64,000 nt of DNA from a virus, in the IMG/VR virus record IMGVR_UViG_3300002092_000032, positions 24,171 through 88,170 of that record; one strand, given 5' to 3'. A program made the translations under genes and the position numbers. Of the stretch, positions 10,054 through 11,144 are shown piece by piece (within the stretch, counting starts at the first letter, position 1; every line of letters starts with the position of its first letter). The notes under the pieces are model-generated. The model saw only the letters and a list, made by a program, of their open reading frames with translations. It ran no database searches and was not told the DNA's origin.

Positions 10054-10878
10054 ATGGACAACAATCCACTAAGACAGTATTTCAGAAGACCAGCAGTCTA
10101 CATCAAACTTCCTTCACTAGGCAAAGATTATCGACCAGGCGTTATTGATTTTTCTGAAACCGGAGAACTTCCTGTATATCCAATGACTGCCATTGATGAA
10201 ATCACGGTGAGGACCCCTGACGCATTGTTCAATGGCACTGCGTTAGCAGAGTTGATCAAAAGCTGTATTCCGGCAATCAAGGATCCATGGCAAGTAAGCA
10301 GTAACGATATGGACTCTATTCTAATCGCGATCAAGATCGCGTCTGGCAATGAAGTTACTGAAATATTGTCAGAATGCCCAGAATGCCAAGAACCTAATAA
10401 TGTCGGAATAAACTTGACCGGAGTATTGGGTACACTAAAGGCAGGTGACTATGATTCAACTTTGGAGCTAGGCGAACTTTCTATCAGGTTCAAGCCTATC
10501 ACTTACAAGATCATGAATGATGCTGCTTTGGGTCAGTTTGAATTGCAAAGAACTTTTGCACAACTAGAAGGTACCGATGACGAGGTTGCTAGAAATAAAA
10601 TAACTAAAGCAGCATTAGAAAATCTTACATTCCTAACGATGAAGATCCTTAGCCAATCCATCGAGTATATCAAGACTCCAACAGCAGAAGTAAGAGAAGA
10701 AGAATTTATTCTAGATTTCTTGAAGAGTTGCGGAAGAACTGAATATGCCACAATCAGAGATACTAATGCAAAGATTAGGGAATCCACTGAAGTAAAACCA
10801 GCAAAGATTGAATGCGAGAGTTGCAAGCATCAGTATGAGCAAGCCTTTAGCATAAGCCCATCCGATTTTTTCGAGTAA
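10054..10878 (+). CDS. gp26: Baseplate hub assembly protein / tail chaperone, gp26-like
   Basis: NPLRQYFRRPAVYIKLPS, VYPMTAIDEI and DMDSILIAIKIAS.G motifs, two CxxC pairs (CPEC, CESC); GAGG SD. Confidence 0.75.
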   Translation: MDNNPLRQYFRRPAVYIKLPSLGKDYRPGVIDFSETGELPVYPMTAIDEITVRTPDALFNGTALAELIKSCIPAIKDPWQVSSNDMDSILIAIKIASGNEVTEILSECPECQEPNNVGINLTGVLGTLKAGDYDSTLELGELSIRFKPITYKIMNDAALGQFELQRTFAQLEGTDDEVARNKITKAALENLTFLTMKILSQSIEYIKTPTAEVREEEFILDFLKSCGRTEYATIRDTNAKIRESTEVKPAKIECESCKHQYEQAFSISPSDFFE

Positions 10879-10916
10879 GGCTTCTTAATTCCTCCCCCGA
10901 GGAAATCCAGAAGCTT
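10866..10916 (+). other. Predicted -1 programmed ribosomal frameshift signal
   Basis: Slippery heptamer T TTT TTC (10866-10872) in the gp26 frame, a 7-nt spacer, then a two-tier hairpin GCTTCT/AGAAGC (10880-85 / 10909-14) enclosing TTCCTC-CCCC-GAGGAA. Confidence 0.7.
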
Positions 10917-11102
10917 ATTGAAAGATATGATAAGGAATCTGAATCAATAAAAAAAGAAGCATTACAGTTGTCATGGTATATGAGAGGGGGAGTGACATAT
11001 GAAGATGTTCTCAATATGTGTGATTTTGAGAGGAAATCTATCAGTGAATTGGTAGAGAGTAACCTAGAAATAACGAAACAATCCAATATTCCATTCTTCT
11101 AA
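10866..11102 (+). CDS. -1 frame ORF (gp51-like / chaperone 'GT' extension), missing from the ORF track
   Basis: Open -1 frame FFRVRLLNSSPEEIQKLIERYDKESESIKKEALQLSWYMRGGVTYEDVLNMCDFERKSISELVESNLEITKQSNIPFF*. It is closed upstream by TAG at 10848, has no ATG until 10980, and is followed at once by a terminator. Confidence 0.7.
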   Translation, partial: FFRVRLLNSSPEEIQKLIERYDKESESIKKEALQLSWYMRGGVTYEDVLNMCDFERKSISELVESNLEITKQSNIPFF

Positions 11103-11106
11103 AATA

Positions 11107-11144
11107 AAGAGAGAACTATTCATTTAGTTTTCTCTTTTCCTTTT
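11107..11144 (+). terminator. Rho-independent terminator, probably bidirectional
   Basis: 12-bp stem AAGAGAGAACTA/TAGTTTTCTCTT (one G.U), 6-nt loop, followed by TTCCTTTT; the reverse strand is followed by TTTATTTT. Confidence 0.75.

Follow-up and report, generated by a model that had tools for sequence, protein, structure and literature searches.

A probable programmed -1 ribosomal frameshift in a gp26-like baseplate hub assembly gene of jumbo phages

Introduction

Does a phage gene for baseplate hub assembly encode one protein or two? This question is raised by a gp26-like gene in a 64,000-nucleotide (nt) stretch of viral DNA (IMG/VR record IMGVR_UViG_3300002092_000032, positions 24,171 to 88,170), the whole of which is called the window below. 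The 3′-end of this gene reads GAT TTT TTC GAG TAA and contains T TTT TTC, a heptamer whose phase is that of an X XXY YYZ slippery site. An earlier note, made from the sequence alone, had proposed that a -1 ribosomal frameshift at this heptamer joins the gene to an open reading frame (ORF) that has no start of its own. The analysis described here makes it very probable that the gene is subject to a programmed -1 ribosomal frameshift and gives rise to two proteins, a gp26-like form of 274 amino acids (aa) and a gp51-like form of 349 aa.

Programmed -1 frameshifts are known in phage tail-assembly genes. The gpG/gpGT pair of lambda and the E/E+E′ pair of P2 are tail assembly chaperones produced in this manner, and Xu, Hendrix and Duda reportedly described in 2004 a conserved -1 frameshift of tail assembly chaperone genes. 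To our knowledge, T4 is a prominent long-tailed phage without a recognised frameshifted pair of such chaperones. The roles of its gp26 and gp51 proteins in hub assembly are poorly understood. In the Pfam family PF12322 (T4_baseplate), to which the gp26-like protein can be assigned, we found no earlier description of a frameshift in papers or genome records, most subscription journals lying outside the search.

Results

Slippery heptamer and open -1 frame at the end of the gp26-like gene

The 274-aa protein matched PF12322 with an E value of 6.7e-13 and 49.3 bits (curated cut-off 24.5) and, in PHROGs, phrog_150 'baseplate hub'. No other gene of the 102-kb record that includes the window matched PF12322. 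Direct reading confirmed the position and phase of the heptamer. In frame -1 a TAG at 10848-10850 is followed by an open stretch from 10851 to a TAA at 11100-11102, as the earlier note had described, and the first canonical starts within it are a TTG at 10968 and an ATG at 10980, the latter 38 codons past the heptamer. No Shine-Dalgarno sequence was seen ahead of either. A terminator directly beyond the -1 frame, which had also been noted, was found again (Table 1). The predicted products are of 274 and 349 aa, the extension comprising 75 residues added after ...SDFF; these sizes agree with the earlier note and with the comparative data given below. The heptamer, its conservation, the selected hairpin, the coding in frame -1, the fused homologues and the single gene copy were all observed in silico.

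Conservation in the clade of the window

Two scans of IMG/VR yielded 72 distinct loci, in which the gp26-like protein has 51-88% aa identity. The sequence [G/A]AT TTT TTC G, followed by one codon and then TAA or TGA, was present in 71 of the 72 loci, and an extension of 78 codons, the two Phe codons included, was found in 71 loci. The 0-frame stop is conserved across the loci of the clade.

Column entropies were computed on 68 gapless sequences of this clade. The third positions of the D-F-F codons had 0 bits of entropy, compared with 0.7-1.0 bits for the other invariant two-fold codons (Cys, Gln, Tyr, Asn, Asp). Past the heptamer the frame 0 codon varies and specifies Gly, Glu, Ala, Asp or Val, while in frame -1 all sequences have an Arg codon CGN, whose third position shows 1.78 bits. 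Downstream of the Arg codon, variation tracks the codon periodicity of frame -1. The conserved residues of the extension read F-F-R-[IVLM]-[RKT]-L-L...P-E..I...W-x-M-R-G-G..Y-E-D..N-M...E-R. These patterns indicate that frame -1 is protein-coding and under purifying selection from the heptamer on. The alignment of homologous loci called for in the earlier note showed that the heptamer, the outer stem of the downstream hairpin and residues upstream of M-R-G-G are conserved, which is the opposite of a family that lacks the site and keeps only the ORF beginning with M-R-G-G. In several loci a -1 frame stop lies immediately 5′ of the heptamer, so that a change of frame is possible there only on the heptamer itself.

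In one locus (L073, 2290-2340) the heptamer and extension are intact and GAA replaces the 0-frame stop. Frame 0 of this locus runs three codons further and ends at a TAA within the 5′ arm of the hairpin.

Cultured jumbo phages

In a tblastn search, phages whose gp26-like protein is only 26-32% identical to that of the window proved to carry the extension in frame -1 immediately behind the gene for this protein. Eleven cultured lineages were read. An in-phase T TTT TTC is present in 121Q, Atu_ph07, Phosso, PA5oct, RaK2, GAP32, CBB and SCTP-2, and an in-phase T TTT TTT in XacN1, Xoo-sp13 and RsoM2USA. In all eleven the heptamer is located at the same FF motif, the 0-frame stop comes 1-10 codons on, and an open -1 frame runs on from the heptamer and codes for a homologue of the window's extension. 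Because it is conserved in 72 related loci and in 11 cultured phage lineages, the site is more than a chance occurrence.

No frameshift was annotated in the sampled GenBank records of jumbo phages. The extension region is unannotated in the records of RaK2 (L105, 1549-1914) and PA5oct (L104, 1549-1773). Truncated small ORFs starting at an internal Met are given for GAP32, CBB, XacN1, Xoo-sp13 and SCTP-2, and in others of the sampled records small ORFs were called from an ATG at the stop overlap.

A hairpin downstream of the heptamer

The two-tier hairpin of the earlier note, placed there seven nt past the heptamer, was confirmed by folding and begins 5-7 nt downstream. Its outer stem, GCTTCT/AGAAGC, encloses TTCCTC-CCCC-GAGGAA. 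ViennaRNA lengthened the stem to the limits given in Table 1, with a minimum free energy (MFE) of -16.6 kcal/mol. Compared with dinucleotide shuffles the hairpin had a z of -4.4, and none of 200 shuffles folded equally well. The outer stem is kept across loci and its pair 36-70 covaries, G-C being replaced by A-U in two lineages. The inner stems vary among loci in both sequence and register (TCCTC/GAGGA, GTTTC/GAAAC, CGTCTTC/GAAGACG).

A further comparison was made with synonymous recodings of the 14 codons past the stop, using the codon usage of each locus and 61 distinct native segments. The median MFE was -13.8 kcal/mol for the native segments and -4.3 kcal/mol for the recodings. The median z was -4.1, with p<=0.05 in 93% of the segments, whereas six other segments of the same genes, which served as controls, gave median z values from -0.8 to +0.4. 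Judged by these comparisons, the hairpin is selected at the RNA level.

In-frame fused homologues

A profile of 12 extension sequences was compared with 1.8 billion cluster representatives at E<=0.001 and produced 339 matches. About 20 of these are proteins of 319-351 aa which carry the extension in frame at the C-terminus and align from profile position 2. A T4_baseplate domain was present at the N-terminus of all ten fused homologues tested. At the junction the fused proteins read ...L-D-x-x-x-x-x-F-R-x-K-L-[IV]-x-x-x-x-E-x-I, and over it they align without gaps with the predicted trans-frame products, both that of the window and those of the cultured phages. The junction codons of the fused homologues are non-slippery.

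In their genomes the fused long proteins are encoded by the downstream member of a tandem pair of gp26-like genes. Such short-then-long pairs were seen in other jumbo-phage lineages at L033:51-2051, L035:5172-7008 and L036:820-2744. As in the window, the order in these lineages is portal, large protein, gp26-like genes and SbcCD; unlike in the window, the long form is a separate in-frame gene and no recoding is needed. L035 is a 327-kb contig syntenic with the window, and its first paralogue is nearer to the window's protein (29% identity, E 7e-42) than the second (20%, 4e-18). The supposition that lineages with a separate long gene have always lost the heptamer proved to be only partly true, as it is absent from T4 and L035 but an in-phase T-run is kept in L033 and L036.

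Relation to gp26 and gp51 of T4

In T4, gp26 and gp51 are hub assembly chaperones (Leiman et al. 2010, PMC3004832, Table 2). By analogy, the role of the gp26-like forms in hub assembly would be that indicated by the T4 genetics in PMC3004832. The GenBank record of Acinetobacter phage Octan (L116) labels both gp26 and gp51 as 'tape measure protein assembly chaperone', and the chaperone idea is thus already present among annotators.

T4 gp26 is a protein of 208 aa that ends in ...EFFELL, and both it and the short product of the window end at the same FF motif. Its FF codons, TTC TTT, are non-slippery, and gene 25 follows. T4 gp51 has 249 aa, of which residues 1-201 match T4_baseplate (E 3.9e-52) and about 48 residues are additional. 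T4 differs from the window in having two separate, divergently transcribed genes instead of one gene with a predicted frameshift. In phage RB16 (L121) genes 51 and 26 are in tandem (54-51-26), unlike the divergent order of T4.

Two motifs of the gp51 tail, F-K-LL-x-P-D-E-I and Y-S-L-x-S-I-x-x-M-x-P-x-E-R, have matches in the extension of the window. Twelve diverse Straboviridae gp51 tails share V-F-K-L-L-x-N-P-D-E-I and Y-S-L-x-S-I-M-x-M-x-P-x-E-R-x-I-x-L-x-L-[IV]-E. In hhalign, the extension profile (113 sequences) matched the gp51 family (12 homologues) with a probability of 72-90% and E values of 2e-6 to 3e-5, columns 40-74 of the extension being paired with the C-terminus of gp51. An end-to-end alignment with the gp51 family was obtained for the fused long forms. 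In a joint alignment gp51 has the same architecture, with a middle part shorter by about 18 residues and the junction motif in common. From these matches, the extension is probably homologous to the gp51 tail. A remnant of gp25, whose gene follows gene 26 with a TAATG overlap, was considered as another origin of the extension and rejected, since there is no similarity to T4 gp25.

A single PF12322 gene is present in each of four complete genomes (121Q, RaK2, PA5oct and Atu_ph07) and in each of two genomes of the window's clade with 92% and 100% completeness. In T4 there are two, gp26 and gp51 both matching the model. These gene counts, one in the frameshift type and two in T4, agree with the link to gp51. 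Taken at the level of sequence, the comparison supports a correspondence of the long product to T4 gp51 and of the short product to gp26.

Comparison with the G/GT system of lambda

As in lambda G/GT, a -1 slip near the 3′-end would yield a short product and a C-terminally extended product with the same N-terminus, in the window as read in silico, and the gene adjoins a candidate tape measure gene. The T4 relatives of the window's protein are, again like G/GT, assembly factors and not established virion parts. The window's gene is divergent from the candidate tape measure gene, unlike the lambda gene, which is directly upstream and on the same strand. The heptamers also differ, being T TTT TTC in the window and G GGA AAG in lambda.

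No tail assembly chaperone family was matched in Pfam or PHROGs. The extension itself matched no Pfam family and had only a weak match in PHROGs, to phrog_27739 (function unknown); its profile found nothing meaningful among PDB sequences. A structure model of a fused homologue had a predicted local distance difference test score (pLDDT) of 95.9 and a predicted template modelling score (pTM) of 0.91, with the extension forming four helices packed on the body. Foldseek gave no significant match of this model in PDB (best E 0.19), and VIA-align gave generic helical matches only, with Z up to 8.3. Homology to lambda G/GT was rejected, there being no family match and no specific fold match; because the fold searches gave no tail assembly chaperone, the analogy alone was kept, and the likeness to G/GT is to be taken as functional analogy only. 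The link between gp26/gp51 and G/GT drawn in the earlier note stands as far as the system of two forms is concerned, long as gp51 and short as gp26, and falls as regards sequence or fold homology. Of the comparisons of the extension that it had recommended, that with gp51 gave the hhalign match described above.

The divergent neighbor, which the earlier note had called the tape measure gene, codes for 1070 aa and is placed between the portal gene and the gp26-like gene. Pfam places a Phage_lysozyme domain in its C-terminal part, at residues 829-949. Its counterpart in RaK2 is annotated as similar to tape measure protein. In language-model features its residues 1-800 come closest to clusters of tape measure proteins (0.93), which is to be used as a lead only. 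The protein is a candidate for a tape measure protein that carries a lytic domain, an identification that is plausible and weakly supported.

Layout of the locus

The record of which the window is part belongs to a jumbo phage and has an estimated completeness of 29%. Sequencing runs that contain the window's sequence are mostly freshwater and lake metagenomes. The coordinates of the features are listed in Table 1.

Table 1. Features of the gp26-like locus, in positions of the window.
Feature	Position	Strand	Remarks
gp26-like baseplate hub assembly gene, frame 0	10054-10878	+	274 aa; Pfam and PHROGs matches
Slippery heptamer T TTT TTC, X XXY YYZ phase	10866-10872	+	direct reading
Spacer with 0-frame GAG and stop TAA (10876-10878)	10873-10879	+	heptamer to stem 5-7 nt
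Two-tier hairpin, putative stimulator	10878-10916	+	outer core 10880-10885/10909-10914; inner 10890-10895/10900-10905
-1 frame extension	10866-11102	+	78 codons, two Phe codons to TAA
Intrinsic-terminator-like hairpin and T tract, end of transcription unit	11106-11137 (whole element to 11147)	+	13 pairs, loop 6, then TCCTTTTAGA
Divergent neighbor, candidate tape measure protein	6760-9972	-	1070 aa

Beyond the terminator of the gp26-like unit, a gap of about 470 nt (11148-11621) without a notable ORF extends to the convergent gene. At 11622-13033, on the minus strand, two genes separate the gp26-like locus from the genes for SbcC/SbcD (gp46/gp47-like): one is a PDDEXK (endonuclease VII-like) gene and the other resembles that of a NUMOD3 homing endonuclease. 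In L035, the syntenic contig, a GIY-YIG gene takes their place.

Discussion

The -1 frameshift proposed in the earlier note is supported by the frozen heptamer, the coding in frame -1, the selected hairpin and the in-frame fused homologues. According to the proposed mechanism, most ribosomes would read GAT TTT TTC GAG and stop at TAA, which gives the 274-aa short form. A fraction of the ribosomes would pause with two tRNA-Phe on UUU UUC, because the hairpin, 5-7 nt downstream, would sit at the mRNA entrance. Paused ribosomes would slip one base back to UUU UUU and then read frame -1 (...SDFF-RVRLLNSSPEEI...), which would add 75 residues, most of them helical, and make the 349-aa long form. One gene would in this manner supply, at a fixed ratio, both of the hub-assembly proteins for which T4 uses genes 26 and 51. 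We infer the ribosomal nature of the slippage, and likewise its efficiency and the chaperone role of the two forms.

Several observations weigh against this interpretation. A single U inserted by RNA polymerase at the T run would give an identical protein, and comparing sequences is therefore not enough to tell polymerase slippage from ribosomal slippage. About 17 of the 72 loci have an ATG or GTG that overlaps the 0-frame stop (as TAATG or ATGA), at no fixed position, and 121Q, Atu_ph07 and Phosso have such an ATG. In the lineages with an ATG overlap the extension may also, or instead, be a separate small protein, and both routes may coexist. Two short paralogues, in L033 and L036, have an in-phase T TTT TTA or T TTT TTC without a productive -1 frame, which means that the heptamer alone is no proof. 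When the extension profile was compared with single T4 proteins by HMMER, gp51 ranked at the top without being significant, which is why the homology to its tail is graded as probable and not as certain; that homology consists of a moderate profile match over 35 columns and the common motif. Finally, a search of RNA runs for the window's sequence found no matching run.

Transcriptional slippage would account for the long protein in another way: RNA polymerase would add one U at T6, and some of the mRNAs would encode the 349-aa fusion directly. The product (D-F-F-R...) would be the same and the site is a homopolymer run, which at the heptamer position reaches T9 in RsoM2USA and T7 in XacN1 and Xoo-sp13. 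Efficient transcriptional slippage in bacteria occurs on runs of about 8-9 or more. The window's run, with six T, is shorter than these, and the RNA-selected hairpin at the canonical distance of 5-7 nt has no role in slippage of the polymerase; together, the short run and the hairpin argue for the ribosome. It also counts against the polymerase that the run has not been lengthened in 71 loci, a weak point since the frame -1 Arg codon also requires the C. We regard transcriptional slippage as very improbable. Still less can be said for an artefact or decay, in which a homopolymer error or a recent frameshift mutation would have split a 349-aa gene and left a truncated protein only. The break does lie in a homopolymer, the commonest site of indel errors, but the same T6C and frame break occur in 71 independent metagenomic assemblies, and a T-run with a frame break in at least 11 finished genomes of cultured phages from several genera. 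This recurrence excludes a sequencing error, as far as sequence data can do so. Moreover, the 0-frame stop is conserved and the extension is under purifying selection, and we give this explanation practically no credence.

The extension could also be a small gene in its own right, coding for about 75 aa and translated, without any fusion being made, by coupling or termination-reinitiation at the 0-frame stop; in the window phage it would use a non-canonical start. This would fit the starts that overlap the stop in part of the loci and the small ORFs annotated there in GenBank records. Against it, the window and most of its relatives have no ATG, GTG or TTG from the heptamer to +41 to +104, and the ATG at 10980 lacks a Shine-Dalgarno sequence. 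Where an overlap ATG exists, its position shifts between lineages (extension codon 4 or 5), Met being suited to the hydrophobic residues allowed there, and the invariant Arg codon lies upstream of every one of them. In RaK2, PA5oct, GAP32, CBB, XacN1 and SCTP-2 the stop comes 3-10 codons past the heptamer, yet homology of the extension begins at the heptamer, and it is exactly at the heptamer position that the fused homologues are joined. A separate gene without any fusion is accordingly very improbable.

With the programmed ribosomal frameshift as the preferred explanation, a broader evolutionary scheme can be put forward, which we consider conceivable and somewhat short of probable. The frameshifted single gene would be ancestral to the gp26/gp51 pair, T4 having swapped the frameshift for a gene duplication. 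T4-like and jumbo myophages would then obey the rule of a short chaperone plus an extended one at a fixed ratio by means of an unrelated protein family, the short form holding the tape measure/hub complex and the extension docking this complex to the growing hub or tube.

The production of gp26-like and gp51-like forms from one gene would explain why T4 has two paralogues, and the frameshift predicts that the ratio of the two forms matters. Mutants of the heptamer and of the stem in 121Q, RaK2 or PA5oct would offer a direct handle on hub assembly. The frameshift would also correct the annotation of every jumbo-phage record sampled, in which the extension is either unannotated or given as a truncated small ORF.

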